Source of the DNA: an uncultured Verrucomicrobiae bacterium | GTDB lineage: Bacteria; Verrucomicrobiota; Verrucomicrobiia; Chthoniobacterales; Chthoniobacteraceae | Length of the DNA stretch: 64,000 nt | Assembly (NCBI GenBank): GCA_963823615.1 | Contig: CAWGMG010000017.1 | Location: forward strand, 52,730 to 116,729 | Direction: 5' to 3' | Shown: positions 19,351-58,843 of the stretch, in pieces | Numbering within the stretch: the stretch's first letter is position 1 | Layout of the letters: each line of letters opens with the position of its first letter | The notes under the pieces: generated by a model | Databases searched by the model: none | Seen by the model: the letters and a program-made list of their open reading frames with translations, nothing else | What the model was told of the DNA's origin: nothing | Position numbers and translations under genes: made by a program

Positions 19351-19956
19351 GGCTGGGGATAGCCAGGAAAAGCCTACTTTCGCGAGGCGAATTGAGCCAG
19401 CCCAAATAACCCTTCGTGCGGCTTCCGAAGCGGCAGAGAACCGGCCGCAGGCAAGGTGCGGTTACCTGCATGAGGACCGCCGCGTGCGGGTGGCGGCTGA
19501 TGGCAGGGCTGCGAAGACCGCGCCCGCTCAGGCGTGACCCTGATTGCGAGCCGCCGGACGAAATAAAAGTGAAACACTTTTCCAATAGGAGTTGTGAGAA
19601 TCGGTGATTGAATCTTGGGGTGCTCACCGTGCCCTCATCCTCCCGGCAGGCTCAGAACCTCTGGCCCACCGCGGCAGCTGCGCAGTCGCCAAAGGCCCCT
19701 GAGCTTGCCGGCTGGGGAGTGCGTGCGCGGCCGCGCGGCCATGAATGCCGGGGGCCGAACCAGGGCCACGATCGATCGCAAACCGCTCCTGCCCGCGCAA
19801 GCGGCGGAGCACGCCAAACTCCACGCTGCTTCACGTGGTCCGCACAGTCCTCTGTGCGGTCGCCGCTTTCCGGGAAGATCGTCAGTGGCCGCGTTCGTTG
19901 TCTCTCGTTTGAAGCGGCTTCCCATAAAGCCGCGAAAGTCACGCTCGCCCACGCTT

Positions 19957-20590
19957 CCTCTGAGACCGATTCCCGAAATTCCCGAAATGCGCCCCCCACC
20001 ACTCAGCCGACGGCGTAAACTGTGCAAGCCTTCCCGAAACTCACCGCGCCTGCGTTTTTCCTCTGAGACCGATTCCCGTAATTCCCGAAATGCACCCACT
20101 CCCACCCGCTCAGCCGCGGCGAAAACCGTGCAATCCTTCCCGAAACTCCGCCGCGCCCGCGCTTTTCCTCTGAGACCGTTTCCCGTAATTCCCGAAATGC
20201 ACCCACTCCCACCCGCTCAGCCGCGGCGAAAACCGTGCAATCCTTCCCGAAACTCCGCCGCGCCCCGCGTTTCTCCTCTGAGACCGATTCCCGTAATTCC
20301 CGAAATGCACCCACTCCCACCACTCAGCCGGTGGCGAAAACCGTGCAATCCTTCCCGAAACTCCGCCGCGCCCCGCGTTTCTCCTCTGAGACCGATTCCC
20401 GTAATTCCCGAAATTCACCCGCTCCCACCACTCAGCCGGCGGCGAAAACCGTGCAATCCTTCCCGAAAATCCGCCGCGCCCGCGTTTTTCCTCTGAGACC
20501 GATTCCCGAAATTCCCGAAATTCACCCACTCCCACCATTCAGCCGGCGGCGAAAACCGTGCAATCCTTCCCGAAACTCGCCGGGCCAAAC
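19957..20590 (+). repeat. tandem array, 6 units of ~103-109 bp (unit starts ~19957, 20060, 20167, 20275, 20383, 20490)
   Basis: Unit cctctgagaccgattcccgtaattcccgaaatgcacccactcccacc..gcgaaaaccgtgcaatccttcccgaaactccgccgcgcc.. repeated with few substitutions; unit lengths are not multiples of 3. Confidence 0.9.
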
Positions 20591-20717: not shown

Positions 20718-22352
20718 GTGTTCTCCAAAGCCTCCTTCTTTCTCGTCGGTTTCCTCGCGCTGGCCGGTCTGGCGCGGGCGGATGAGCCGCTGCATGTGCG
20801 CGTCGATCAGCTCATCGAAAAGCAGGCCGAGGGGCAGCCGATCGCGCCGCTCGCCGGCGACGCGGAGTTCCTGCGGCGGGTCTATCTCGATTTCGCCGGA
20901 GACCTTCCCACCGCGGCGGAGGCGCGCGCTTTCCTCGATGACCAGGCGCCGGACAAACGCGAGCAATTGCTCACGAAACTCCAGGCGGCCCCGCGCTTCG
21001 CGGAGCGACTGGCCGATGCGCTGAATGTGATGCTGATGGAGCGCCGCGGTGAGGACGCCGCGTGGCGCAAGTATCTCCAGGATTCGTGCACAGCGGGCAA
21101 GCCGTGGGATGTGATGGCAAAGGAGATGCTCGCCCCGGATTACGCAAATTCCGAGCTGAAGGGCGCCGGCTATTTCACCGTGCGCCGGCTGGAGAAGGTC
21201 GGGCAGCAGACAACGGATTATCCCGGCCTGACGCGCGATGCGGGGCGGATGTTTCTCGGCGTCGATCTCCAGTGCTGCCAGTGCCACAATCACCTCACGG
21301 TCAAGAGCTACAAGCAGGTCGATTTCAATGGGCTGTTCGTCGCCTTTCAAAACATCAAGCTCGAGGGCGCGGAGGGCAAGGCCATGAAGGTCCGCGAAGC
21401 GCCGCTGATGGCGAAGTACGATTTCGTCTCGGTGCTGACCAAAGTCGCCGGCCAGACCGGGCCGCGCATCCCCTTCGGCGAGGAGATCGAGATTCCCGAT
21501 CCGAAGTCCGACGACTACTGGGAAGTGAAGCCCGACCCGAAGAAGAAGGAGGTCGGAGTGGCGAAGTTCAGCCCGCTGAAGGAGATCGCCCAGCGCATCG
21601 CGACGAAGGAAAATCCGTGGTTCGTGAAGAACATCGCCAATCGCATGTGGTGGCTGCTCATGGGCCGCGGCATCGTGGAGCCGCTGGATTTGCATAACCC
21701 TGCCAATCCGCCCTCGCATCCCGAGTTGCTCGATCTCCTCGCCCAGGAAATGGCCGCGCACGATCTCAGCCTGCAATGGCTGCTCAAGGAGCTGTCGCTC
21801 ACGAAGACTTATCAAAGGACGAGCGTTCTGCCGGAGCCGGAGGCCCTGAGCTTGTCGAAGGGGGGCAAGGCGCCGCCGGAAAACCTGTTCCTGGTCGCCA
21901 AGGAGCGCCCGCTCTCGTCGGAGCAATTGGTCCGCGCGTTCCTGCGCGCCACCGGCGAGTACGACGCGGCGGCCGTGGCCGATGCGCCGAAGGGCCACGC
22001 GCTGGCGGATTTCGACAAGGCGTTTCGCGGCGCGTTTGCCAATGCACCCAAGGAGCCGGAGTTGACGGTGAACCCGACGCTCAAGTCCGCGCTTTTCCTG
22101 CGCAACAGCGACCTCGTTCTCTCCACCGTCAAGCCCGAGCATGGCAACCTCGTCGAACGGCTCGTCGCGGTCACTGACCCGAAGGCGCTCGCCGAGGAGC
22201 TGTATCTAACCATCCTCACGCGCCTGCCCACCGCGGAGGAAACGGCGGAGGTCAGCGTGTGGATCGAAAAGCATGCGTCCGATCGCCCGAAGGCGGTGGG
22301 TCATTATGCATGGGCTCTGCTGAGCTCTGAAGAATTTTTCTCCAATCATTAA
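20718..22352 (+). CDS. DUF1549/DUF1553 (PSCyt-type) domain protein
   Basis: Signal MFSKASFFLVGFLALAGLARA; CCQCHNHLT motif; typical partner of DUF1501 in PVC genomes. Confidence 0.85.
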   Translation: MFSKASFFLVGFLALAGLARADEPLHVRVDQLIEKQAEGQPIAPLAGDAEFLRRVYLDFAGDLPTAAEARAFLDDQAPDKREQLLTKLQAAPRFAERLADALNVMLMERRGEDAAWRKYLQDSCTAGKPWDVMAKEMLAPDYANSELKGAGYFTVRRLEKVGQQTTDYPGLTRDAGRMFLGVDLQCCQCHNHLTVKSYKQVDFNGLFVAFQNIKLEGAEGKAMKVREAPLMAKYDFVSVLTKVAGQTGPRIPFGEEIEIPDPKSDDYWEVKPDPKKKEVGVAKFSPLKEIAQRIATKENPWFVKNIANRMWWLLMGRGIVEPLDLHNPANPPSHPELLDLLAQEMAAHDLSLQWLLKELSLTKTYQRTSVLPEPEALSLSKGGKAPPENLFLVAKERPLSSEQLVRAFLRATGEYDAAAVADAPKGHALADFDKAFRGAFANAPKEPELTVNPTLKSALFLRNSDLVLSTVKPEHGNLVERLVAVTDPKALAEELYLTILTRLPTAEETAEVSVWIEKHASDRPKAVGHYAWALLSSEEFFSNH

Positions 22353-24745: not shown

Positions 24746-24828
24746 CTTCCGCCGAAGGCTGTCCGTCCCTGGCACCGACAGCGCGGTGCGCTCCGTTAGC
24801 GAGCCCCGGCACGACGATCGGTGCTACT

Positions 24829-24882
24829 CCCAGCCCCTCCCTCCAAACCGGACGGCGGTTTTCCCGCATCCCGCTTTCCAGT
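24829..24882 (-). mobile_element. group II intron domain V/VI-like remnant (~55 nt)
   Basis: cccagcccctccctccaaaccggacggcggttttcccgcatcccgctttccag aligns to 50471-50522 of the intact intron (..caaaccggacaggcggttttcccgcatccggctttccgag). Confidence 0.5.
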
Positions 24883-25536: not shown

Positions 25537-28500
25537 CTACCGGCGCGGTGCAGGCCGGAGCGACAGCGATTCGTTCTCGGAGCGCAGCTCGACGGCGTCC
25601 GGTGGCGGCACGGTCCTCCGATCATACGGCCAAGGCGTGGAAAACAACACGGAGGGTGTGGGCAGGAAGCGCGGCGGCTGCGAGGGCGGGTAGGACTGAT
25701 AGAACGGCGTCGCCGCGCGGAACGGGCGGACGCGGTCGCGCTCGCCTCTGGGATAATCCATGGAGCTCGGCTGATAGCTTCTCGTTTCCGGCGTGCACGA
25801 GCGAATCACCATGTTCAGCAGGATGACGCCGAAGAAGATCCAGCGTCCGATGGACAGGGGACCCATGGATTTGCCGCCCCCCGGCTGGCGAATCCAGCTC
25901 GACCGGTACCGCTCGCCGGCGAGCTGCGCCATCAGCCCGACGGCCCGCCGGGTCACCGGCTTGAGCAGCCCGCCGTGCAGATAATTGGCGGTGGGGGATT
26001 GGTTGAGCCGAGCGATGCGGTTGCGCAACTCCGCGGGCCGGCCCGCGGCGGGCGTCCGGTGGACCGAGAGCCCGGCATTCACGACCTCGCGCAGCGCATC
26101 GTAGAACGCGCCGTCGCCGCCGAATTGCGCCGCGCTGGCGAAGCTTGCCGCGTCGTCGAAACGCTGCGCCAGGAGCGCGTCGGAGGCCATCCACAGCTGG
26201 TGGTGGCGCGTCGTGTGATCCGGCGGTTCGGCGAGCGCGCGCCGGCTGGCGGCCACGCCTTCCGGCACGCGTCCCAGTCGCCGGAGCACGACCGCCACGT
26301 TCAACAAAATCCACGGCGGAATCGACGGGCGCCGCTCCCACTCGCGGAACCAGGCGGCCGCTTCCTTGTTCTGATTGAGCTGCACCAGGATCGCGCCGGC
26401 CTGGCCCCAGAGCTCCGTGTCGGCGCGCAGGGCCGGGCCGGAGGCACGCAGCAGCCACCGCAGCTCGTCGAGTTTGCGGTGCTTCGCGAGGCGCTCGAGG
26501 TAGGCGAGGTGCGCGCGCTGGCCGACGGGCGTGGTGAACCCCAGGAACGCCAGCGCGCGATAGGTGCGCGTGCCGCCGCGCTCGCCGACGAGTTCGCCGA
26601 AGAGCCCACCCGCCGCGGGCGAGGCGCCTTCCTCGGTCAGCCACGAGGCCAGCCGCTTTTCGAGCTCCTGCCGCTGGCCGGCGGCGAGGAGCGCCTGCCC
26701 GGCCGCCGCGACCGCGGAGCCGTCTTCGTCGCGAGTGAGGCAGAGCTGCCGCATCGTTTCGAGCGCCTCCGGGAACTCGCGCCGGGCGAGGTGGAGCCGG
26801 ACCTCGCCACCGACGGTCGTGGCGCCGGGGAGGTGCAACTTCATGCGCGCGAGCACTTCCGCGGCCTCGTCGAAGCGCCCGGCCTTGAGGTGCTGCTCGA
26901 AGAGATTGTGCGAGGCGAAGCCGTAGGAGGGATCGAGCTCCATCGCGCGGCGCAGAAACGGGAGCGCCTCCTCCGCGCGATTCGCACGCAGCAGCAGGCT
27001 GGCGCGCCAGCCCAGGGGAATGGCGCTTTGGGGAGCGAGCCGGCAGAGTTGTTCCGTCGCCTCGAGCGCCCCGGGGAAGTTCTCCAACTGCGACTCCCAC
27101 TCGACCAGCCGATGCCAGCCCCAGGTGAAATCCGGCTCGTCGCGCAGCAGCGCGCGCATCGCGGTGACGGCGCCGTGGAGATCGCCCCGCTCGGCGTCGA
27201 CCCAGACCCGGCGGCCGCGCAAGGCGACGGGAAGCTGGTCCGCGGGCCATGCCGCCGGAGCGCAGGCCGCGGCCGCCTCCTCCCAGCGGCCGGCGCCGGC
27301 CAGCAGCAACGCGCGGCCGTCGTGGGCATCGCCAAACCGCGGATTTAGCGCCAGCGCGCGATCGATGGCCCCGAGGCGTGCCGGGAGATCGGTGACGGGA
27401 AGGCATTCCGCGAGGCGCAGCCAGGATTGCGGCTCGGCGGGCCGCAGCTCCGTGAGCGAACGGGCGCATTGCAACGCGCGGCCCTCCAAGCCTGGGCGTT
27501 GCGAGAAGCGGCGCAGCAGATCCCAGCCGGCCTCGTGCCCCGGCTCCAGCCGCAGCGCGCGCTCGGCGGCTTCCGCGGCGGCCTCGGCACGGCCGCGTTT
27601 GTCGAGCAGCGCCGCCAGGTGCGTGTGATTCTCGGGATCGAGCGGCGCCGCGGCGATCGCCACCTCGAGCACGCGCTGCGCCTCGTCGAGATCATCCCCG
27701 CGCTCGTGGGCGGTCGCAAGCGCGCGGGCTGCTTCGCCGCAGGCCGGCTGCAGGACGAGCGCGCGGCGCAGCGGCCGGATCTGCTCCACGCGTTCGCCGC
27801 GCGCCACGTGGACGCGGGCCAGGTTCAGCCAGAGCGGCACGAGCAGCGGGAAACGCTCGGTCGCCTCGGTCGCGAGGGTCAGCGCCTCGTCGAGCTGCCC
27901 CATGGCGGTGAGCTGTTGCACCGTCGCCGACCACGCGTGCCACAGGTCGGGACGCGCGGCGAGCGCCTCGCGCAGTCCGGCCAGCAGCTCCGGCGGCTCG
28001 AGAATCGGGAAGGCCAGATTGCGATAAGAGAGCAGGCCGTCGCCCAGCACCACCTGGCGAATGAGCTCCTGGCGAATGAAGGCGATCGACTCCCGGCGCT
28101 CGCCAAAGCTCTCGCTCGCCGTCAGCAGCTCAACCATGGCCGGCGTGTGATCGACCGAGAGCCGCAGCCCTTCGCGCGCCGCCTCCCGCGCCGCGGGGAG
28201 ATCGCCCGCGAGCCGCGCGAGCAGCGCGCGGATGGCGCAGTTGATCGGTTCGCTTCGCTCCAGGGCCTCGGCCCGCGCCAACTGTTCGCGCGCCTCCGGC
28301 AGGTGCCGCTGATCGGCCAGCGTGAGCGCCAGTTCGCGCCGCGCCCAAGCGTCGTCCGGATTCATCGCCAACAGCGCCTCGACCGACTCCTGCAGCGCCG
28401 CCGCGCCGCTCGCCCGCGCCGATTCCACCGCCAGCCGGCGCAACCCCAGGTGATGCGGGAAGCGCTCGATCTGCGCGGCCAGGTGCGCGTTGGCGGCTTC

Positions 28501-30867
28501 GCGTCCCGCGGTCTCCGCGGTCAGGCGCCCCACGCAGTTGTGCGCATCCATCGCCAGCGGCTCGGCGGCCAGCACCTCGCCCCAGAGCGCGAGCGCCTCG
28601 CGCAGATCGCAGCGATAATCGGCCAGCGTGGCGGCGGCCCGCAGCCACGCGGCGCCCGCGGATCGCTCCTTCGCCTGGGCCAGCAATCCGGCGGCGCGGT
28701 CAAAATCGCCGAAGCGGCCAAACGCGTCGGCCGCGAACAGCAGCAGATCTCCATCCGCGGGGCGCAAGGTGAGCGCGTGTTCGAGCCGCGCAAAGGCCTC
28801 GGGGTGCCGGTCGAGCACGCTCAGCGCCCAGAAAAGCACCCGCGCCGGTTGGGCGGAGAGCGCCGCGTTTTGCTCGAAGCGCTGCGTGAGCAACTCCACC
28901 ACGCGGTCGGCCTCGCGCAGATGCCGCGCGGCCATGAGATACGCCCTGGCGAAACCGTCCACCTTGTCGCGCAGGCAGGCCGCGTGCCGGTAAAGCTGCG
29001 TGGCCACGGCGAACTCCCGGCCCGCCCAGCGCAGATCGCCGAGCGCCGCGAGATTGGCAGCGTCCAGCGCCTGCGCGCGCACGCTGCGCGTCAGCCAGCG
29101 CAAGGCACGGCCCTGTTCGCGCGCGTCCTTCGCCAGGTGCTGCCCCCATTCCCGCCAGAAGGCCGGCTCCGGCCCCTGCGCGAGCTCCCGCAGAAACGCC
29201 TCGGCTTCCGGCGCGTGCCCGAGCTCGCGGAGGAGGGCAAGCTTCGGATACTGCAGGTGGCCCGCCGTGGGGAAGCGCTCCAGCAGCGCCTCGAGCGCCC
29301 GCAAGCCGCGCGCGTGATCCGCATCGTACGCAGCCAGCACCCGCTCCGCCTCGAGCGCGAGCCGATGGCCGGGCGAGCCGGTGTGCAATTCACCGAGCAC
29401 CCGTTCCGCGTCGGCCCGCCGATGCTCATGCAGCGCGCGGCGCACCTGGAAATAGCGGTCGTATTCGGCGGCGTCCGGCAACTCCAGCCCCTCCAGTCGC
29501 GCCGCGTCCGCCACCGGCAGCAGCACCATGCCGCGCGGGCCGCTGGAGGCGTAACGCTCCAGCAGCAGCTCCGCAAAAGCCTCGCCATTCGTTCGCTCAA
29601 ACGGATCGCGGATGAGCAAAGTCCCGCGGGCGCGGTCGTACCCGATGACGGCCTGGAGGTGCGCGCTTTGCGTCTCCAGCGTCACCATGGTGAAGGGCAG
29701 GCCGCGATCGAGCAGCGCGAGCGCCGCGTCCCAGGTGACGCGAAATTCGCGCACGGCCCAGCCGTTCTGCTGGAGCCATGCGCGCTCTTCGTGATCCGGC
29801 GTGCCGTCGTAGCAGATGAGGCGCGCCAGCGAGAGGTGATCGATGGGCGCCCCGAGGAAGATGCTGAGCGCGCTGAGCGTCGCCGGCGCGCACGTCATGT
29901 GATGCTGGCGCACAAAGGGGACGGGCAACAGCACACGGCCCGTCTGCGCGGGCGCGCCATTCGCCGCGGTCAGGCGCTCGTGGAGCCTGGCGAAGAAGGG
30001 CGTCCCCGCCTTGGCCGCCGCTTCCGCCGCCGCTGCCACGTCGCCACAGGCATAGTGCGCATCGGACATGCGCCCGTGCCACCACGCGCTGACCTCCTGT
30101 TCCATGAGCGGCGAGAGATCGGCGCAAAGCTGGTAACTTTTCAGCGCGCCGGGGTGGTCGCCGAGCTCCGCCTGCAGGGTCGCCAGGGTTGCGGCGAAGA
30201 CGGCGCATTCCGTGTGCTGGAGCGCCTCCTGGAGCAGCGCCACCGCGTCGTGATCGCGTCCGAGCAGCGGGAGCACCTCGGCGGCGGCGCAGACCGCGCC
30301 ACGAAACCACGGTTGCAAACGCAGGCCCTCCTCGGCCGCGGCCAGCGCCTGCGGGTAGCGGTCGCGCGCCTTCAGCAACTCGGAGCGCAGCACCCACGGC
30401 CACGGGCGGGGCTCCGCATGGATCTCCCCCGCGCGGTCGAGATGTCGCTCGGCCTCGTCAAAATCACGAAACAGGGTGAGCACGGCGCACCGGGCCAGCT
30501 CCAGGTCCGCGCGCTCCTCGTCGGTCGCATTGGGGAACGCCGGCCGGAGCTCGAGAAAATCCCAGGCGCCGCGTGGCCCGCGCTCCCGCAGCAAAGCGTA
30601 CGCCCGGAAGTACGCCGCCGCGGCGCTCGTGCGATCCTCGCGCCATGCGCGCTGGTGCAGCCGCCGCGCCGTCCGCGGCGCGCCGATGTTCGAAGCCAGA
30701 CGGCCGGCGACCAGGGCGGCGGCCGTGCCCGACCACGCCTCCAGCGGCGCGACCTCCAAAGCGCGCCGGTGCGCCTGCAGGAGAAGCCCTCGATCGTAGA
30801 GCGCTTCCACCGCAGCCACATCCGCCATCGAAACCGTCACACACGCGCGCGCTGGGGAAGCAAGCAT
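25537..30867 (-). CDS. giant TPR-repeat protein with embedded papain-fold C39-like peptidase domain and C-terminal TM segment
   Basis: Dozens of TPR-like helical repeats; peptidase region VPFVRQHHMTCAPATLSALSIF..TQSAHLQAVIGYD (Cys..His); C-terminal WIFFGVILLNMVI. Confidence 0.65.
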   Translation of the reverse strand: MLASPARACVTVSMADVAAVEALYDRGLLLQAHRRALEVAPLEAWSGTAAALVAGRLASNIGAPRTARRLHQRAWREDRTSAAAAYFRAYALLRERGPRGAWDFLELRPAFPNATDEERADLELARCAVLTLFRDFDEAERHLDRAGEIHAEPRPWPWVLRSELLKARDRYPQALAAAEEGLRLQPWFRGAVCAAAEVLPLLGRDHDAVALLQEALQHTECAVFAATLATLQAELGDHPGALKSYQLCADLSPLMEQEVSAWWHGRMSDAHYACGDVAAAAEAAAKAGTPFFARLHERLTAANGAPAQTGRVLLPVPFVRQHHMTCAPATLSALSIFLGAPIDHLSLARLICYDGTPDHEERAWLQQNGWAVREFRVTWDAALALLDRGLPFTMVTLETQSAHLQAVIGYDRARGTLLIRDPFERTNGEAFAELLLERYASSGPRGMVLLPVADAARLEGLELPDAAEYDRYFQVRRALHEHRRADAERVLGELHTGSPGHRLALEAERVLAAYDADHARGLRALEALLERFPTAGHLQYPKLALLRELGHAPEAEAFLRELAQGPEPAFWREWGQHLAKDAREQGRALRWLTRSVRAQALDAANLAALGDLRWAGREFAVATQLYRHAACLRDKVDGFARAYLMAARHLREADRVVELLTQRFEQNAALSAQPARVLFWALSVLDRHPEAFARLEHALTLRPADGDLLLFAADAFGRFGDFDRAAGLLAQAKERSAGAAWLRAAATLADYRCDLREALALWGEVLAAEPLAMDAHNCVGRLTAETAGREAANAHLAAQIERFPHHLGLRRLAVESARASGAAALQESVEALLAMNPDDAWARRELALTLADQRHLPEAREQLARAEALERSEPINCAIRALLARLAGDLPAAREAAREGLRLSVDHTPAMVELLTASESFGERRESIAFIRQELIRQVVLGDGLLSYRNLAFPILEPPELLAGLREALAARPDLWHAWSATVQQLTAMGQLDEALTLATEATERFPLLVPLWLNLARVHVARGERVEQIRPLRRALVLQPACGEAARALATAHERGDDLDEAQRVLEVAIAAAPLDPENHTHLAALLDKRGRAEAAAEAAERALRLEPGHEAGWDLLRRFSQRPGLEGRALQCARSLTELRPAEPQSWLRLAECLPVTDLPARLGAIDRALALNPRFGDAHDGRALLLAGAGRWEEAAAACAPAAWPADQLPVALRGRRVWVDAERGDLHGAVTAMRALLRDEPDFTWGWHRLVEWESQLENFPGALEATEQLCRLAPQSAIPLGWRASLLLRANRAEEALPFLRRAMELDPSYGFASHNLFEQHLKAGRFDEAAEVLARMKLHLPGATTVGGEVRLHLARREFPEALETMRQLCLTRDEDGSAVAAAGQALLAAGQRQELEKRLASWLTEEGASPAAGGLFGELVGERGGTRTYRALAFLGFTTPVGQRAHLAYLERLAKHRKLDELRWLLRASGPALRADTELWGQAGAILVQLNQNKEAAAWFREWERRPSIPPWILLNVAVVLRRLGRVPEGVAASRRALAEPPDHTTRHHQLWMASDALLAQRFDDAASFASAAQFGGDGAFYDALREVVNAGLSVHRTPAAGRPAELRNRIARLNQSPTANYLHGGLLKPVTRRAVGLMAQLAGERYRSSWIRQPGGGKSMGPLSIGRWIFFGVILLNMVIRSCTPETRSYQPSSMDYPRGERDRVRPFRAATPFYQSYPPSQPPRFLPTPSVLFSTPWPYDRRTVPPPDAVELRSENESLSLRPAPRR

Positions 30868-50180: not shown

Positions 50181-50414
50181 TCTCAGAGGAAGAGCGGGCG
50201 CCGTGGCGCCGGAGGCCCTGAGCGTGGCGAAGGTGCCGCAGGCCCTGAGCCGGTCGAAGGGTTTCGGGAAGGTTTGCGCAGTTTCGCGGGACGCTGGACG
50301 AGGCATTTCGGGAATTTCGGGAATCGCGCTCAGAGTAAGTGAAGGAGCCGGCGAGAGGAGGCTGAGGCGAGGTTTCGGGAAGGAATGCGCAGTTTTCACG
50401 GGAGTGGCTGGGCG
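50181..50414 (-). repeat. tandem repeat array (same family as 19957-20590, inverse orientation), part 1: ~2 units ending at the intron 3' junction
   Basis: rc units ..cgaaatgcctcgYccagc..gaaaactgcgcattccttcccgaaac..; terminal palindrome module at 50155-50189. Confidence 0.85.
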
Positions 50415-52498
50415 AGGCATTTCGGTAGAGTAGGCGGGAAGCGACGGATTGAGAGGCACACGGCCAATGACCGTCTGCTTCCCGCCCCTCATCAAACCGG
50501 ACAGGCGGTTTTCCCGCATCCGGCTTTCCGAGTTCCATTCTCGAAAAGCGCTGTCTCATGTGCATGGGGTCGGCATTTTGTAGAGCCCGTATTGCGTGAA
50601 GAGTTCCCGATTTGCCCAGCGTTTGTATTTGCCACAGGGATTGCCGTGCTTGCGCCATAACCACTGCCGGAGGCGGTGGGCCACGAAGGTATTCAGTTGC
50701 CCGAAGCTCCGATGGTACTGGGCGAGGGCAAAGAAATTGCCCCAGCCACGGGTCACTTGGTTGATTTCACGCACGACTTCCTCGGTCGCTCTCCACACGG
50801 AGCGCGCGTGGGTTAGCTCGCGCACCCGGTCGCGGAGCGCCTGCCCCTCGGCGGGCTCGGGGCCTTGAGCTTGTCGAAACGGCTCCGCTTCCGGGCTGGG
50901 CTCGATGTGCACGTACGCCGTCTTCTTCTTGGATTGTTGCCAGCGGAAGCTGAAGCCGAGGAACTCAAAACCGCTTTCACGGCTCTGGAGCACTTCGGTT
51001 TTCTTCTCGTTGAGGGCCAGGCCGCGGCTTTGCAGCCAGCGGGCCAGCCGCTCCTTCATGCCCGCTCCTTGCCCGGTTCCGCAGAGGATGACCAGATCGT
51101 CCGCAAAGCGGACCATCCACGGCTTTTGCCGGCACTGTTCATTGACCCCTTCATCCAGCGGATGCAGGTAAATGTTGGCCAGCAGGGGCGAGATGACGCC
51201 TCCCTGCGGTGCGCCGCAGGGGTTGGCCTTCATCTTCCGCCCGCCGCCTTTCTCCTCCTCCATCACCGGGGCGCGCAGCCATCCTTTGATGAGCTGGAGG
51301 ATCGTCCCGTCCCTCACCCGCCGCGCCACCAGCCGCAGCAGTTTCCCGTGCGGGATCGTGTCGAAGTACTGCGCCAGATCGGCGTCCACTACCGAGGAGG
51401 CGGAGGGGACAAGGGAGGTTGCAGGGCGGGCGAGCCCTTCGGTGCGGCCACTGCGCAGCCCCTGCCGGATCGCCTCCACCGCCCCGTGCGCTCCACGCCC
51501 GGGCCGATAGCCGAAGGAGAGCGGATGGAAGTCCGCCTCGAAAATCGGCATCAGCACCAAGGACACGGCCATCTGCACCACGCGATCCTTCACCGTCGGG
51601 ATGCCCAACCGGCGCACCCCTCCATCGGGCTTCGCGATCTCCGCCCGGAGCACTGGCGCCGGCCGGTACGTCTTGGCGCGCAACTCCTCCCGCAGCGCCT
51701 CCAGCCACGCCACTTCCTTTTCCTGATCTGCCGCAAGGTCCGCAATCTCCACTCCAGCAACCCCCGCGACCCCGCCATGGGCCTTCACGCGCCGCCACGC
51801 TGTCTCCAGCACATCGGCGCGCTGCACCTCTCCATACAGACTCCAGAACCGGGAGCCCGGACTGGACTTCGCTTTCCGATACAGCGTGATTTGCAACTGC
51901 CGAACCTTTTTGGGTGCTGGTAGCTCCTGCGAGCCGTCACCACGGCTCGCCCGGGACCCTGCCGCCACTTGTCCCGTGCGCCGCCGCCTCGGTCCTTCGT
52001 TGCGCTTCACTTCTGCGGAACAAGTGGCGTCCCTTTGCTCCCCCATGTTTTCTCCGAACCAGAGGTCCAGCATGGGATCAACGCTACTACGAACGCCTCC
52101 GACTTCTGCCGTGGCCGCACGGCCTCCCTCTTTCGGAGAGGTTGGGCCGCTTGTTGAGTCAGGTTTACTCGCCATGGCAGATCTCCCCGTTTACCCGCAC
52201 ATCACTTCGCGACATGTCGTCCACGCCGACCCCGCCGGTCTAATATCCCCACCCGCGACGGTTGGTCTGGGTGCGGACTCTTCGGCCTTCGCCCAAATTC
52301 CAGGGGCTCGGCTGCCGGGAGTATCCTTTCGAGGCTCATTTATGTGGTTCATATGGTTATTACGACCTGCCGGTTCGACTCCATGCCTGCTCCCCACCCC
52401 GCCTCGCGGCGACGCAGTTGGCACGGTCTTCGGTGCTGAACCGTCTAAGTGCACCGGCGGGACTTGCACCCGCGTTGATGTGCGCTTTGCGGGCGCAC
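50415..52498 (-). mobile_element. group II intron (2084 nt) with intact RT/maturase ORF
   Basis: 5' end GUGCGCCCG (rc of 52490-52498); domain V aaGCCGGAugCGGgaaaaCCGccugUCCGGuu (rc of 50481-50516); domain VI GGGCGGGAAGC..GCUUCCCGCC then ..uacucuac 3' end at 50415; IEP ORF lies between. Confidence 0.85.
50556..52175 (-). CDS. group II intron-encoded reverse transcriptase/maturase (true start probably at an internal Met, ~52046-52073)
   Basis: RT0-RT7 motifs: ..VLETAWRRVKAHGGVAGVAGV.., IAKPDGGVRRLGIPTVKDRVVQ, FADDLVIL (YADD variant); maturase/X domain; C-terminus GNPCGKYKRWANREL. Confidence 0.85.
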   Translation of the reverse strand: MASKPDSTSGPTSPKEGGRAATAEVGGVRSSVDPMLDLWFGENMGEQRDATCSAEVKRNEGPRRRRTGQVAAGSRASRGDGSQELPAPKKVRQLQITLYRKAKSSPGSRFWSLYGEVQRADVLETAWRRVKAHGGVAGVAGVEIADLAADQEKEVAWLEALREELRAKTYRPAPVLRAEIAKPDGGVRRLGIPTVKDRVVQMAVSLVLMPIFEADFHPLSFGYRPGRGAHGAVEAIRQGLRSGRTEGLARPATSLVPSASSVVDADLAQYFDTIPHGKLLRLVARRVRDGTILQLIKGWLRAPVMEEEKGGGRKMKANPCGAPQGGVISPLLANIYLHPLDEGVNEQCRQKPWMVRFADDLVILCGTGQGAGMKERLARWLQSRGLALNEKKTEVLQSRESGFEFLGFSFRWQQSKKKTAYVHIEPSPEAEPFRQAQGPEPAEGQALRDRVRELTHARSVWRATEEVVREINQVTRGWGNFFALAQYHRSFGQLNTFVAHRLRQWLWRKHGNPCGKYKRWANRELFTQYGLYKMPTPCT

Positions 52499-53210
52499 GG
52501 AATTACGGGAATCGGTCTCAGAGTAAATGAGGGAGCCGGGTGAGCCGGAGGCCCTGAACCTGTCGAAGGGTTTCGGGAAGGAACGCGCAGTTTTCGCGGG
52601 ACGCGTGGGCGTGAATTTCGGTAATTTCGGGAATCGCGTTCAGAGTAAATGAGGGAGCCGGTGAGCCGGAGGCCCTGAGCCTGTCGAAGGGTTTCGGGAA
52701 GGATTGCGCAGTTTCGCGGGACGCGTGGGCGTGAATTTCGGTAATTTCGGGAATCGCGTTCAGAGTAAATGAGGGAGCCGGTGAGCCGGAGGCCCTGAGC
52801 CTGTCGAAGGGTTTCGGGAAGGTTTGCGCAGTTTTCGCGGGACGCGTGGGCGTGAATTTCGGTAATTTCGGGAATCGGGCTCAGAGTAAATGAGGGAGCC
52901 GGTGAGCCGGAGGCCGTGAGCCTGTCGAAGGGTTTCGGGAAGGTTTGCGCAGTTTTCGCCGGTTCCGGTCGTCCCATTCTTCCCCTGCTTCCCGTCCCCG
53001 CGCCCGGTCCGCGACCAATTTCGGTAATTATGGGAATCACCCTCAGAGCGAATGAGCAGATACGGAGGGTAGTTTCGGAACAGATTGCGCAGTTTCGCGG
53101 GAAAGATGGCAGCGCGAGTTTCGGTAAGTGTGGGAATCGCCCTGAGAGTGAATGAAGGACGCGGAGTGGCATTTCGGGAAGGATTGCGCGGTTTCGCGAG
53201 ACGGCGGCCC
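52499..53210 (-). repeat. tandem repeat array part 2: ~4 near-identical 120-121 bp units (starts 52499, ~52613, ~52733, ~52854) then ~2-3 degenerate units
   Basis: Unit gaatttcggtaatttcgggaatcgcgttcagagtaaatgagggagccggtgagccggaggccctgagcctgtcgaagggtttcgggaagg(a/t)ttgcgcagttt(t)cgcgggacgcgtgggcgt. Confidence 0.9.
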
Positions 53211-53962: not shown

Positions 53963-56928
53963 ATGGCATATCGTTTCGATGTCGCATTCTCCTTCGCCGG
54001 CCCTCACCGCGAGAAGGTGCGGGCCATCGCCGAGCTTGTCGCGGCGAAGCTCGGGAAGAAGCGCGTTTTCTTCGACGAGTGGTACCGAGCGGAAATCCTC
54101 GGGGGGAATATGCGCGTGCTGCTCCAGCGTATCTATGGAGAGAAAAGTCTCATGGTTGTCGCGGATCTTTCGCAAGACTACGCCGATCGGCCTTGGAGTC
54201 AGGGCGAAAGCGAGGCCATCGATGCTCTGCGGATGCGAATCGACTCGGCGCGCGACGAGACCGCGCGCCTGCGGGTGTTCATCGTGCGCTTCGGTCCCGG
54301 CGAGGTGCCTGGCGTCTTGGAAAACACCGGCTGGCTCGATGGCGCAGCCCTCTCCGTGGAAGAAATCGCCGGCGCGATTTTGGAGCGACTCGACCTGCTC
54401 AATGAACGCATGGGCGAAAGCGCCACCCCTGCCCCGCCACCGCCGGTCCCCTTGGCTCCCTCTCTTCCAGCGTCCCCCTCTTCCGCTCCGCCGATCCTCT
54501 TCTTTCACCCCGCTACCAACGACGCCCTCTACTCCCGGCGCGAGCGCGAGTTGGACTGGCTCGACGAGTGCGCGAAAAATCCCGCAATCCGCATCGCCAC
54601 CGTCACCGGCGTCGGTGGGCTGGGGAAGACCTCGCTCGTCGGGCATTGGATCGAGAAGGCGCGCGGCTGGCAGCATCGCGCCTTTCACGGCGTGTTCTTC
54701 TACAGCTTCTATTCCGATCGCGACCCGAAGCATTTCTTCGCGGCGTTCCTCCAATTCGTCTGCGAGCAGGAGAAGATCGAGGCCCTTCCTCCGGATCGTC
54801 CGCTCCATCATCTTGCGGCCGCAGCGGTGCGCAAGTGGTGCTACCTCGTGGTGCTCGATCGGCTCGAGGTGCTCCAGCACGACGAAAGCGATCCGCACTA
54901 CGGCTGGATCAACGACGGCGCGCTCAATGAATTCGTCGCGCGCGCCGGGGCGGCGGGGCCTTCGCTGCTCGTGCTCACCAGCCGCTTCCCCTTCCCGGAA
55001 GTCACGCGCGAGCATCCCGAGGCCGCCCGCGCGTGCGAGCTGCCCCTGCTTACCGACGACGAAGGCGCCGACCTGCTCGCCCATTGCGGTCTCGACGGCG
55101 GGCGGGAGAAGCTGCGCGGCTACAGCCATCAATTTGGCGGGCATCCGCTCGCGCTGCGGCTCTTTGCCGGCGCGTGCCTCGCGCAGCCCTTCGATGAACC
55201 GGAGACGGTGAGCCGGCACTTGCTCGCGGCAGGTGCGGAGGCGGGCGAAGAGGACGCGCATCGCCGGCAGTTCCGCAAGCTGCTGCTCTGGCTGCAAAAG
55301 AAACTCCCCGTAGAAAAGCGCCGACTGCTCCAGCTCGTCGCGCTCTTTCGCGAGCCGGTGCCCACAGCCACGCTCGCCGCGCTCGCCACGGGGCTCGATG
55401 CGATGAAGGCGGACTTCGGCGATTGCGACGCTGCGCGTCTCCTTTTCCTCCTTGATGCCCTGGTGCGTGATCAGTTTACTCCAGCGCGAGGAAGCGCCCG
55501 GCAGCGACACCGCCCGCTGGGCGGCGCATCCCATTGTGCGCGAGGTCTTCCGCGTCGAGGCACTGGCGTCTGGCGACACGGTCGCGCAGCAGTTTGCCGG
55601 GATCGTCGCGGGAAAGGGGGCGGGCCGCGCGCCCCGGAGCGTGGCGGAATTGCAGCCGATTCTGGAGGCGATCGAGTTGCTCCTCGCTGCGGGGGATTTC
55701 AAGTCGGCCGATGAGGTGTATCGCGGGCGGTTGGAGAATGGTGACGTATTCAAATGGATTCCCGCCCCGCATGAGGGGCTGCATTGCGCGCGGGGATTCA
55801 TCGAGCCGCAGGAACGTCGCGCAACGCTGGAGCAATTGGTCGGGCGGGAAGCGACAGCGCGCTACTTCAACGCTGTGGCGGGTCTTGGAAGCATTGTTGG
55901 CGAAATGGACCGGGTGGAGAGCCTGTATATTGAAATGCGCTACCTCTACACGGTCGAGTGCAATTGGAACGCCATCTCCGGTAGTTTCCAAAGCCTCGCG
56001 GCGGTTCAAACACTTCGCGGGATGCTGCGAGAGGCGGTCGCGCGCGCGAACGAGGCTCTCGCTTTTTGCGGGATCCAAGCAGTGAGGACATCTTGGAACG
56101 TCCCGCCCCTCCATCCAACGGACAAGCTGAACATTTTGATCGATAAAGATTTAAACTGCACTTCCCTCGCATACCGGGCAAACGCGCTTTCACTCGCGGG
56201 GGAATTGCCCGCCGCCGGTCGTGACTTTGCTTCGTCCGATACGCTCCAGCGCTTGGGTCACCGCGAAAACGTCGCACTTCACTCGCTCCGGGGCATCCAG
56301 TGGTGCCGCCATTGTCTGCGCCTCGGCGAGGCGGACGGCGCCCGCCGCCTCGCTGAGGCAAATTGGAGCGATCTGCGCGCGGAATCAATGGACCGCCGAC
56401 CTCGCCGCGTGCGACCTCCTCCTCGGTGAACTCGATTTCGCAGCGGGCGACCGCGATTCCGCCGAACAACGAATCGGCGCGGCCGTGCGGATCTTTCGCG
56501 AGGCCCGGCAGGGGATGGACCTCCCTGACGCGCTGCTCGCGCAGGCGCGGCTGCGGGGGAGCATTGAGGATTGCGAAGAGGCGCTGCGGCTCGCGGCCCG
56601 GAGCGGCTTTGCGCTGAAGCAGTGCGACGCCCTGAATCTCCGCGCCCGTCTCCGGCGTGAGGCCGGCCAGCCCGCCGACGCCGCCAAGGATGCCCGCGAC
56701 GCGCTCGATATCGCCGAGCGGTGCGGCTACTACTGGGGCCGGCATGAAGCCTTGCGCCAGCTTCGCGATGTCGCGAAGGCGCTCGGGAATCGCGCGGATG
56801 AGAGGCATTGGGACGAAGCCGAAAAGGCGCTGGCTGCGCGCATGAAGCCGGAGGTCGAAGAGGCGCTGCGGATCAATCGCGAGCACGATGCGGAAATGGA
56901 GCGGCTTTACGGAAGGCCGAAGCCGTAG
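53963..56928 (+). CDS. TIR - NB-ARC (STAND P-loop NTPase) - TPR protein, NLR-like; split over 3 frames (shifts ~55440 and ~56250)
   Basis: TIR: FDVAFSFAGPHREKVRAIAELVAAKL..VFFDEW..SLMVVADLSQDYADRPWSQGESEAI (conserved Glu present). P-loop IATVTGVGGLGKTSLV; hhhhD LVVLDRLE; LLVLTSRF; C-terminal TPR-like repeats to ..ERLYGRPKP. Confidence 0.7.
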
Positions 56929-57248: not shown

Positions 57249-58337
57249 ATGCCTCGCAGCTTGCGCATCCAGTACCCCGGCGCGTTTTATCACGTCATGG
57301 CGCGGGGCAATGGACGGGCGGATATCTTTCGCGGCGATGCGGACCGGACGCTTTTTCTCCGCACGCTCGGCGAAGCCTGTGGGCGGACCGGCTGGCGCGT
57401 GCACGCCTGGGTGCTGATGCGCAATCACTACCATGTGGTGCTGGAAACGCCGGAGCCGAATCTGGTCGAGGGGATGCAGTGGCTGCAGAATGCTTACACG
57501 CGGCGCTTCAACACGCGGCACCGCGGCTGGGGCCGGTTATTCGGCGACCGCTACAAGGCGGTGCCCGTGGAGGGGGAAGGGTACTACTACGAGACGCTGC
57601 TGAAATCGCGGGCGCATCACGCGCGCAGTCCGAATACCGTGGAGGGGGAAGGGTACTACTACGAGACGCTGCTGGATTACGTCCACCTGAACCCGGCGCG
57701 CGCGGGGTTGATTCCGATGGCCAGCGGCGGAAGTCTGCGCGACTACCCGTGGAGCAGCGTGGCGGCCGGATACGCGCTGCCGCCGGGGCGCCGGGCGAAA
57801 TGGCTCGCGGTGGAGGACGGCCTGGCGAGCTTTGGCTGCGGCGATACGGCGGCTGGCCGCCGCAGTTTTGTCGCGCGGCTCGATGTGCGCGCTCTGGAGG
57901 AGCCGCGAGCCAAGACGGGCTTGCCGGCGCTCGATCCGGAGCGTGACCGGCGGAGGAGCACGCTGGCGGACGGCTGGTACTGGGGGAGCCAAGCCTTCGC
58001 GGAGCGTCTGCTGGCGCTGGGGGAAGCAGTGATCGGACGTCCCGGGCACCGATCCGCGCGGAGTACGCAGGAGAAGCGCGCGCATGGCGAACTGGTCGCC
58101 CGCGAGCTACTCGAGGAAGGGCTCCGCCGGGCGAAGCTGACCCGTGAAGAGCTCCCCGCTCTTCCTGGGAGCGATCTGCGCAAAGTGGCGCTCGCCAGCG
58201 CGATCTGGGAGCAAACCATTGTGAGCATGGCATGGCTGGCGGAGCATCTGGCGATGCGGAGCGCGGCCAATGCGAGCCAGCAAATTCGCCGCTACCGGCT
58301 GGCCCAGGCCAAGCCGCTGTCAAGAAATGTCGCCTGA
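57249..58337 (+). CDS. IS200/IS605-family Y1 (HUH) transposase, RAYT-like N-domain fused to DnaA-C-terminal-like HTH domain
   Basis: AFYHVMARGNGRADIF..HAWVLMRNHYHVVLETPEPNLVEGMQWLQNAYTRRFN (HuH = HYH; catalytic Tyr in NAYTRRFN); C-terminus SDLRKVALASAIWEQTIVSMAWLAEHLAMRSAANASQQIRRYR resembles DnaA domain IV; internal 36-bp perfect direct repeat 57567-57602 / 57639-57674. Confidence 0.75.
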   Translation: MPRSLRIQYPGAFYHVMARGNGRADIFRGDADRTLFLRTLGEACGRTGWRVHAWVLMRNHYHVVLETPEPNLVEGMQWLQNAYTRRFNTRHRGWGRLFGDRYKAVPVEGEGYYYETLLKSRAHHARSPNTVEGEGYYYETLLDYVHLNPARAGLIPMASGGSLRDYPWSSVAAGYALPPGRRAKWLAVEDGLASFGCGDTAAGRRSFVARLDVRALEEPRAKTGLPALDPERDRRRSTLADGWYWGSQAFAERLLALGEAVIGRPGHRSARSTQEKRAHGELVARELLEEGLRRAKLTREELPALPGSDLRKVALASAIWEQTIVSMAWLAEHLAMRSAANASQQIRRYRLAQAKPLSRNVA

Positions 58338-58481
58338 CCCCTATGTTTAAGTGACCCCTATGTTTAAGTTCCCATCTCGCTATTTAAAACACCCGATGTC
58401 TGGCTCGTCGCCGGCGTCGCTTATGGTATCGCGACAGGTGAGAACGACGCTTTTACGGGCGAGGCATTATCAAAGCCATTT

Positions 58482-58715: not shown

Positions 58716-58797
58716 GCACATGGGGGTCAGCACATGGGGGTCAGCACATGGGGGTCAGCACATGGGGGTCAGCACATGGGTCAGCACATGGGGGTCA
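58716..58797 (+). repeat. tandem 14-bp repeat cacatgggggtcag x~6, an amplification of a unit present once at 57199-57212
   Basis: cacatgggggtcagcacatgggggtcagcacatgggggtcagcacatgggggtcagcacatgggtcagcacatgggggtcag. Confidence 0.85.
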
Positions 58798-58843
58798 GGC
58801 GACATTTCTTGACAGGCCGGGTGGGTTTTCGTGAAATCGTCGC

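Follow-up and report, generated by a model that had tools for sequence, protein, structure and literature searches.

An endonuclease-less group II intron in a Chthoniobacterales bacterium very probably homed into an intergenic repeat by two short exon pairings

The 64,000-nucleotide (nt) stretch of DNA analyzed here, called the window below, comes from an uncultured Verrucomicrobiae bacterium of the family Chthoniobacteraceae (contig CAWGMG010000017.1 of assembly GCA_963823615.1). Two arrays of a short intergenic repeat lie within it, each located upstream of a gene and co-oriented with that gene. Array 1 precedes a gene for a PSCyt2/PSD1 protein (20718-22352, plus strand), and array 2, on the minus strand at about 50200-53200, precedes ftsK. 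Array 2 is split by a group II intron that encodes a reverse transcriptase (RT)/maturase, and the likely ftsK ATG (50067, same strand) is found 357 nt downstream of the intron 3' end. The features of the locus and their coordinates are collected in Table 1.

Read on the minus strand from 52498 to 50425, the intron is 2074 nt long, begins with GUGCGCCCG and ends with ..CCUACUCUAC. Both ends are invariant among relatives and conform to the consensus for group II introns (5' GUGYG and 3' AY, the latter within ..CUAC at 50425). Excision of the intron rejoins the flanks as ..GATTCCCGTAATTCC^CGAAATGC.. (CTCTGAGACCGATTCCCGTAATTCC^CGAAATGC..), where the caret marks the insertion point or exon junction here and below, and the product is one repeat unit. 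The ligated-exon junction would be expected to read CCCGTAATTCC^CGAAATGC (..CCCGTAATTCC^CGAAATGCC..). The original prediction, made from the letters of the window, had placed a complete group II intron at 50415-52498 inside a single repeat unit that the flanking exons restore. The completeness of the intron, the restored unit and the upper boundary all stand, but the lower boundary was set 10 nt too far, since the 3' exon begins at 50424.

The Rfam model Intron_gpII (RF00029), which represents domains V and VI (DV and DVI), matches 50425-50528 on the minus strand with 47.3 bits (gathering score 40, E = 3.6e-6), and this is the sole gathering-level RNA match of Rfam in the whole window. The 3'-terminal 136 nt of the intron fold into a DV hairpin followed by a long DVI helix (z = -5.9). 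Thus, the canonical domain V and the domain VI hairpin that had been proposed are both present, the latter with a bulged A at -7. Further upstream, the RNAalifold consensus of 12 diverse intron 5' regions closes domain I (DI) through nt 6-23/293-314 and shows compensatory changes at 19 of 86 pairs. A second alignment, covering domains II and III (DII and DIII), reveals compensation among related introns at 23 of 58 pairs. At relaxed thresholds, the Rfam model group-II-D1D4-6 (RF02005) is matched from its first position to its last (1-225 of 225) by 52220-52466 on the minus strand, with an E value of 1.6e-11 and a score slightly short of the gathering threshold. Because DI-DIII covary and the D1-D4 model is matched over its full length, the possibility that no group II fold exists apart from DV is not borne out. 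Furthermore, the ribozyme of the window copy does not depart from any conserved or paired position. It is near certain that this copy is intact in architecture, and the element very likely represents an essentially intact six-domain ribozyme of IIB-like build.

The open reading frame (ORF) for the intron-encoded protein (IEP) was predicted to specify a 539-amino-acid (aa) RT/maturase with an FADD variant of the active-site motif, and this description proved accurate. The frame is open over all 539 codons, so that the disrupted ORF which would have counted against the prediction was not seen, and the Pfam families RVT_1 and GIIM match residues 180-409 (E = 5e-30) and 445-521 (E = 3e-15), respectively. 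FADD is also carried by the closest relatives, and YADD is carried by somewhat more distant ones. A Pfam scan of the IEP reported no HNH or endonuclease (En) family, and because the protein stops 18 residues past the maturase domain, it has no D/En domain. In the part of the ORF that encodes the RT and maturase (X) domains, the ratio of nonsynonymous to synonymous substitution rates (dN/dS) is about 0.18-0.20 in comparisons with relatives. When compared with the PDB, the IEP is nearest to RTs of class C (IIC) introns, which score 188 and 174 bits versus 116 bits for a IIB RT. Among plasmid-borne IEPs, even the nearest do not exceed 41% identity.

Homologs of the IEP are about 495 aa long and start at the same ATG. 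This conserved AUG (52173-52175) is located within the 5' strand of the DII basal stem, and the reading frame crosses both DII and DIII. Over that stretch dN/dS is about 0.6-1.9, and therefore the N-terminal 60-90 residues of the IEP appear to be constrained by the RNA rather than by the protein. Indels in the same stretch are mostly multiples of three, with the exception of the related locus L045, in which the ATG is lost as well. Sequestration of the start codon in the DII stem could provide translational regulation. Neighboring varieties in Table S2 of PMC3552965, My.va.I1 for example, combine ORFs near 500 aa with introns of roughly 2 kb, and given such entries an ORF that runs through DII and DIII is not regarded here as new.

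Covariation shows that the insertion site is read by two exon-binding sites (EBS1 and EBS3), which pair with the intron-binding sites (IBS1 and IBS3) on either side of the junction. In an alignment of related introns, EBS1 is the sole hypervariable hexamer within an otherwise invariant stretch of DI. The pairing of EBS1 to the 5' exon that was to be sought is complete in the window copy, where GGAATT (GGAAUU in the RNA) faces a 5' exon ending in AATTCC at 6 of 6 positions. Eight distinct EBS1 hexamers, including that of the window, are each complementary to their own 5' exon at four to six of six positions, and mostly at all six. Examples of EBS1 and the corresponding 5' exon end are CAAGAG and CTCTTG for an intron of one metagenome-assembled genome (MAG; the L001 family), ACAGAA and TTCTGT for L020, CATAGC and GCTATG for L022, CAGTTC and GGACTG for L019, CAATTG and CAGTTG for L036, and CGATAG and CTATTG for L028.

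On the 3' side, the EBS3 column covaries with the first base of the exon as G-C, U-A and A-U across the lineages with a readable 3' boundary, with G:U in L045, and the sole departures are two of the 21 copies listed for the MAG. The base located 5' of EBS1 is an invariant U that does not covary, and EBS3-IBS3 is used in place of a delta-delta' pairing. Judging from these alignments, exon recognition is by EBS3-IBS3, the mode of IIB and IIC introns. In a sister intron, represented by 20 copies within a single MAG, target conservation is restricted to positions -6 to +1, and its 20 sites carry no information at -7 to -30. In the alignments of related introns that were inspected, no variable DI loop is complementary to positions -7 to -20, and therefore an EBS2-IBS2 pairing of the kind expected for the IIB type is not evident. 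For this intron family, 6+1 base pairs appear to suffice, without EBS2 or a DNA stem-loop.

Each repeat unit consists of Box A (CTCTGAnnnCGATTCCCnTAATTCC^CGAAATKC), a variable spacer, Box B (..GAAAACYGYGCAAnCCTTCCCGAAAC) and a second spacer. The intron occupies Box A of one unit in array 2, and seven array sites in the window are empty, so the claim that empty and occupied sites coexist holds. Some details of that claim require revision. The six units of array 1 all retain AATTCC^C, but the 16-mer site attributed to all of them is exact in only three, and the others differ by one or two bases. Likewise, the free sites claimed for the neighboring units of array 2 are reduced to a single unit, the next one downstream of the occupied unit, since the three units upstream of the intron have a mismatch at IBS1 position -2. 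Free AATTCC^C heptamers number 11 in the window, with six in array 1, one in the downstream unit and four elsewhere, and about four AATTCCC heptamers would be expected from base composition. In L187, which comes from a close relative (93% identity of the PSD1 protein), only a single Box A unit (300-400, CATTCC^C) is located upstream of the orthologous gene, and therefore array 1 with its six units is a recent tandem amplification.

The repeat itself might have a function for the host. Four contexts allow a judgment (the two window arrays, L178 at about 1700-1830 and L187 at 318-570), and in each of them Box A is upstream of the next gene and co-oriented with it, and the downstream genes are ftsK, the PSD1 operon (twice) and a gene for an NMT1-like binding protein. 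Box A also holds two direct heptads, ATTCCCG-nA-ATTCCCG, and may be a promoter or operator element. A comparison of the repeat array with Rfam at E <= 1 gave nothing except one chance miRNA match, and scans of the arrays found no sigma-70-like promoter in their units and no terminator-like site.

Related introns were gathered as 54 loci from species-representative genomes, mostly from Verrucomicrobia; one MAG accounts for about 20 of the copies, and Chthoniobacter flavus Ellin428 contributes several more. In addition, at least 12 contigs from other samples (JGI, ENA and Logan) carry the same sub-lineage as the window intron at 83-86% nucleotide identity, and all of these introns have EBS1 GGAATT and EBS3 G. 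Their 5' junctions read ..CGATTCCCATAATTCC^ in L179, L180, L181, L182, L184 and L185, and their 3' junctions begin ^CGAAAT.. in L055, L057, L178-L181, L184 and L185. The longer 3' junctions of the sub-lineage read ^CGAAATTC, ^CGAAATGC or ^CGAAATTG, and that of L183 (^CGAAACCC) diverges after CGAAA. Overall, counting the window, the sub-lineage has seven readable 5' flanks, each of which shows Box A, as do nine of ten 3' flanks, L183 being the exception.

Several of these contigs point to repeated use of the same box. L180, L181 and L182 encode an identical IEP within three different flanks, and L185 (1888-2053) has two occupied boxes with 165 nt between them. An empty Box A is found downstream of an occupied one, at a distance of a few hundred nt or less, in L057, L179, L180 and L181. 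Copies encoding near-identical IEPs (P0121 and P0122, which differ by one or two aa) reside on two other contigs of 616 kb and 238 kb. Box A was searched for and not found in the surroundings of sister introns that carry other EBS1 sequences (about 0.44 Mb) or in 0.73 Mb of unrelated metagenome contigs, and therefore the intron sub-lineage and the repeat travel together. A scan of metagenome contigs with the 15-mer junction AATTCCGTGCGCCCG returned 120 chance matches and no introns. Together with the covariation of EBS1/IBS1 and EBS3/IBS3, the insertions into the same box in other samples substantiate the homing site that the original prediction had defined from one locus.

Some related loci show other irregularities. 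Two sister introns are fused head to tail in L002 (3679-7556), an 83-nt palindromic insertion is present in DI of L028 (3650-3732), and the 5' junctions of L024 and L025 carry a 9-nt duplication of the intron 5' end. The window also holds a lone DV-like relic of another group II intron at 24811-24878 on the minus strand, which shares 84% identity with DV of the window intron across 57 nt and does not reach the gathering score of RF00029 (25.8 bits). A search for a second intron in the window found only this 57-68-nt DV relic, with no IEP or RT remnant nearby.

Table 1. Features of the group II intron, its encoded protein and the surrounding repeat arrays.
Feature	Position	Strand	Description
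Complete group II intron	50425..52498	-	GUGCG 5' end and CUCUAC 3' end; full-length alignment of relatives; restored repeat unit
5' exon	52499..52523	-	CTCTGAGACCGATTCCCGTAATTCC, 5' part of Box A of the occupied unit; IBS1 AATTCC at 52499-52504
5' splice-site consensus GUGCG	52494..52498	-	Read from the sequence; unchanged in 12 aligned relatives
Domain I	52185..52493	-	Intron nt 6-314; closing stem CCCGCAAAGCGCACAUCA / AGUGAUGUGCGGGUAAACGGGG
EBS1 (GGAAUU; DNA GGAATT)	52296..52301	-	Terminal loop of a DI d3-type hairpin, where Rfam places an unpaired loop
EBS3 (G)	52227	-	Column covaries with first 3'-exon base
Domain II	52106..52180	-	Basal stem CUGCCAUGGC/GCCACGGCAG holds the IEP start codon; compensatory changes in L019, L024 and L045
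Domain III	52024..52100	-	Overlapped by the N-terminal part of the ORF; alifold covariation
IEP, 539 aa	50556..52175	-	RT motifs 0-7 and X/maturase; Pfam RVT_1 and GIIM
Insertion 1	51945..51992	-	48 nt, in frame, PRRRRTGQVAAGSRAS; diverged inverted copy of the 45-nt module; absent from nine relatives, present in L057
Insertion 2	51393..51437	-	45 nt, in frame, GLARPATSLVPSASS; absent from relatives except L057/P0006
Insertion 3	50844..50882	-	39 nt, in frame, PFRQAQGPEPAEG, between RT and X; carries the TTCGACAAGCTCAAGGCC module; only in the window and L178/P0064
C-rich module copies	Window 51393-51437, 51945-51992; L057 177-222, 1095-1140 and two more; L178 465-509
Domain V	50494..50526	-	AGC triad and 2-nt (CU) bulge; RF00029 alignment and minimum free energy fold
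Domain VI	50428..50490	-	Bulged branch-point A at 50431, -7 from the 3' splice site; centroid fold
3' exon	50336..50424	-	CGAAATGC..Box B.., remainder of the occupied unit; IBS3 is C at 50424
Empty matching site	50303..50318	-	GAAATTCC^CGAAATGC; unit just downstream of the occupied unit
Array 2 upstream units	52501..52959	-	121 nt x 3.8; Box A AATTAC^C, no EBS1 match
Array 1	19955..20586	+	Six 107-nt units, all with empty AATTCC^C; upstream of the PSCyt2/PSD1 gene, co-oriented

The anatomy of the intron, its exact boundaries, the pairing rules, the repeated independent insertions into Box A elsewhere and the coexisting empty sites are direct observations. On the basis of these sequence comparisons, a mobile group II intron without an endonuclease very likely retrohomed into Box A by EBS1 and EBS3 pairing. 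The intron would have reached its present position through two pairings, with EBS1 GGAAUU binding AATTCC and the EBS3 G binding the adjacent C, and the resulting heptamer falls within Box A. The Box A repeat, present as single or tandem copies upstream of genes in the host clade, would thereby supply many non-coding landing sites. Since the IEP is without an En domain, reverse splicing into DNA would presumably be primed by strands at the replication fork. The inserted intron would then be co-transcribed with ftsK and removed by splicing. Viewed this way, the intron of this soil Verrucomicrobium is an ordinary, well-defined example of an element that chooses harmless repeated landing sites.

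The oddest feature of the locus is a set of mini-insertions of 27-48 nt. Insertion 2 immediately precedes the catalytic-Asp strand of RT motif 3 and has no counterpart in the solved RTs, which show a gap there when aligned. In a set of 120 homologous IEPs, only the copies from the window, L057 and L178 contain internal insertions of at least 8 aa, apart from a single unrelated example. A C-rich module of 44-48 nt (GGCTCGCCCGCCCWGCRRCCTCCCTTGTCCCYTCCGCCTCCTCGG; GGCTCGCCCGCCC..CTTGTCCC..CCGCCTCCTCGG), of which insertion 2 is one copy, recurs in both orientations at five different positions among intron copies of the sub-lineage. One copy in L057 is inside DI beside EBS3, a 44-nt copy in L178 coincides with the point at which gene calling splits the ORF in two, and an identical 44-mer is present in two samples at different positions.

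The origin of the C-rich module was sought in several ways. No copy was detected in the 62 kb of the window outside the intron, where alignment scores were no better than those of shuffled sequences, and comparisons with Rfam and with a plasmid collection gave no match. Its six-frame peptides were compared with 5.8 billion proteins, yielding 39 word-sharing candidates, none at E <= 10. The module lacks terminal inverted repeats and a hairpin, and no clear duplication of the target accompanies it. Derivation of the 45-nt module from the 3'-exon spacer was considered and rejected, because the likeness seen by eye was not significant. An undescribed tiny insertion element, or a templated insertion acquired on the intron by a process such as RT template switching (RNA/cDNA), is a speculative and on balance unlikely explanation.

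A second module of 27-39 nt (TTCGACARGCTCARGGCC) is present in insertion 3 and in the units of array 2; it also occurs as a 27-nt tandem (50208-50260) and, in antisense orientation, at 21842-21859. The last of these falls within a 27-nt in-frame insertion at 21836-21862 that adds PEALSLSKG to the PSCyt2/PSD1 protein. This peptide is missing from 11 of 11 aligned PSD1 homologs, one of them 93% identical. Two arms of the second module form an inverted pair in L187 (61-148). If the pattern is real, the two modules together would point to an unrecognized source of short in-frame insertions in these bacteria.

Retrohoming into Box A by an intact and mobile intron must be weighed against several contrary observations. 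The D1-D4 score on RF02005 is 47.2 bits, which is 1.8 bits under the gathering score of 49. The IEP of the window carries three in-frame insertions that most relatives lack, together with private Y108S and D140A substitutions at positions that are invariant in the other aligned relatives. D140 is part of a GxDG motif that is conserved also in two aligned solved RTs. Sibling IEP copies keep the ancestral residue at either 108 or 140. In addition, four of the 11 free heptamers are outside the arrays, and therefore a preference for Box A beyond the seven-base target is suggested but not proven. The window copy may be inactive or decaying, and the chance that it is currently mobile is no better than even. 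A possible reading, although not the favored one, is that a real group II intron has become a decaying, immobile relic whose site is a fossil of past homing. The three insertions in the ORF (48, 45 and 39 nt), one of which directly precedes the motif 3 strand, fit this reading, as do the two substitutions, which are private or common to one sibling only. Relatives that bear the module are visibly broken, given the split ORF call of L178 and the module in DI of L057, and the lone DV remnant in the window shows that introns do decay in this genome. Nevertheless, all three insertions preserve the reading frame, the ORF remains open, and the ribozyme does not deviate at conserved or paired positions. 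Insertion 2 is common to L057 and insertion 3 to L178, in ORF segments that are still open. Siblings that are 99.6-99.8% identical on other contigs share the insertions, which implies that copying took place after the insertions arose.

The intron might instead have no specific affinity for the repeat, such that seven bases are recognized and the arrays merely hold most of the AATTCCC sites in GC-rich genomes. The limited target of the sister intron (-6 to +1), with its 20 copies in many unrelated contexts, is compatible with this rather doubtful proposal, and the EBS2-IBS2 pairing that might extend recognition was sought and not found. Seven of the 11 free heptamers in the window are within arrays, compared with roughly four heptamers expected by composition. 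What this proposal explains less readily is Box A at all seven readable 5' flanks and at nine of ten 3' flanks, since the chance of seven sites all falling in arrays, given 7/11, was calculated to be about 0.04. The practical outcome would be unchanged in any case, because the repeat would still be the landing site. A class C intron that recognizes a DNA stem-loop, in the form of a terminator or attC site, is highly improbable. Although IIC RTs are the solved structures that the IEP most resembles (188 and 174 bits versus 116 bits for a IIB RT) and both EBS2 and an En domain are lacking, the PDB holds no RTs of classes D, E or F, and thus the likeness to IIC RTs is uninformative. Folding of the 45 nt upstream gave -5 to -11 kcal/mol for sites of the sub-lineage against a background of -12.5 kcal/mol, and -8.2 against -10.9 kcal/mol for 20 sister sites. 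These flanks are therefore less structured than background, the arrays have no terminator-like site, and targeting of the IIC type was rejected on these grounds. Moreover, EBS1 is a full 6 bp, the best D1-D4 model is that of subfamily 6, DV carries an AGC triad, and a relative has been filed among class-F-related or unclassified varieties (PMC3552965).

Retrohoming into Box A thus remains the preferred account, and it can be placed among known systems. Group II introns without an endonuclease comprise classes C, D, E and F and related varieties (PMC4424553). A 2013 survey of such introns lists a Chthoniobacter flavus Ellin428 entry (NZ_ABVL01000056.1, 6159-5518C) together with class F and the g1-g4 varieties (Toro and Martinez-Abarca 2013; PMC3552965, Table S2). 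That fragment, recorded there as "Unclassified," is exactly L044, which has 70% protein identity to the window IEP over residues 357-535 and 87% identity in DV-DVI. The window intron belongs to this Chthoniobacterales-centered lineage, which the survey left unclassified, and the two introns share an RT-X architecture without En. The published entry covers only a 3' fragment (domains V and VI) and gives no target site, EBS/IBS assignment or class, whereas the window copy is full length and has a defined homing box as well as the additional mini-insertions. In the literature on such introns, no main-text mention of Chthoniobacter or Verrucomicrobia was found, and the Rfam 15 paper does not state which class D1D4-6 represents.

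Among better-known elements, a useful comparison is RmInt1 of Sinorhizobium meliloti. RmInt1 recognizes a longer target through EBS1, EBS2 and EBS3. It is an En-minus class D intron that homes into the insertion sequence ISRm2011-2 (PMC1802570; PMC4424553), and to that extent the two systems are alike in combining an RT/maturase without En, site-specific retrohoming into a repeated non-essential element and many copies per genome. The window lineage differs in that it conserves 6+1 bases with no detectable EBS2 pairing, and in that its target is a short intergenic repeat rather than an insertion sequence element. Class C introns offer another parallel, since they too are without En and EBS2, insert at intergenic motifs present many times in a genome and have the most similar solved RTs. 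However, they insert at terminators or attC sites, whereas the window lineage has no target stem-loop, a 6-bp EBS1 and a different D1-D4 model. The nested introns of Methanosarcina acetivorans, described as a "perpetual homing site" (reviewed in PMC4424553), likewise persist through homing into a repeated non-coding sequence that is multiplied in the genome. There the homing site is inside other introns, whereas in the window it is inside a host intergenic repeat that is able to amplify in tandem.

Some additional features of the window are unrelated to the intron or have no clear connection to it. At 26000-30000, where the ORFs are very long (1776 aa, minus strand; 1149 aa, plus strand), the GC content climbs to 0.72-0.74. 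The cumulative GC skew has its minimum near 30-32 kb, and both arrays point toward that minimum. Across array 2 and divergent from ftsK, the gene at 53963-55714 on the plus strand has weak Pfam matches to TIR_2, NACHT and AAA_16, and may encode a STAND NTPase of the defense or signaling type. Other tandem repeats, with a 14-nt unit present 6.1 times at 58716-58798 (GCACATGGGGGTCA) and a 17-nt unit present 2.1 times at 58335-58369, are not related to the arrays.

None of these findings overturns the current understanding of group II introns. What they provide for this little-studied En-minus lineage of Verrucomicrobia is a set of exact boundaries, the positions of EBS1 and EBS3, and both occupied and empty sites in one genome. 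Close relatives retarget naturally via changes in EBS1, which bears on how introns switch targets and on the design of compact targetrons. Furthermore, an intergenic repeat that amplifies in tandem can serve as a renewable safe harbor for an intron.

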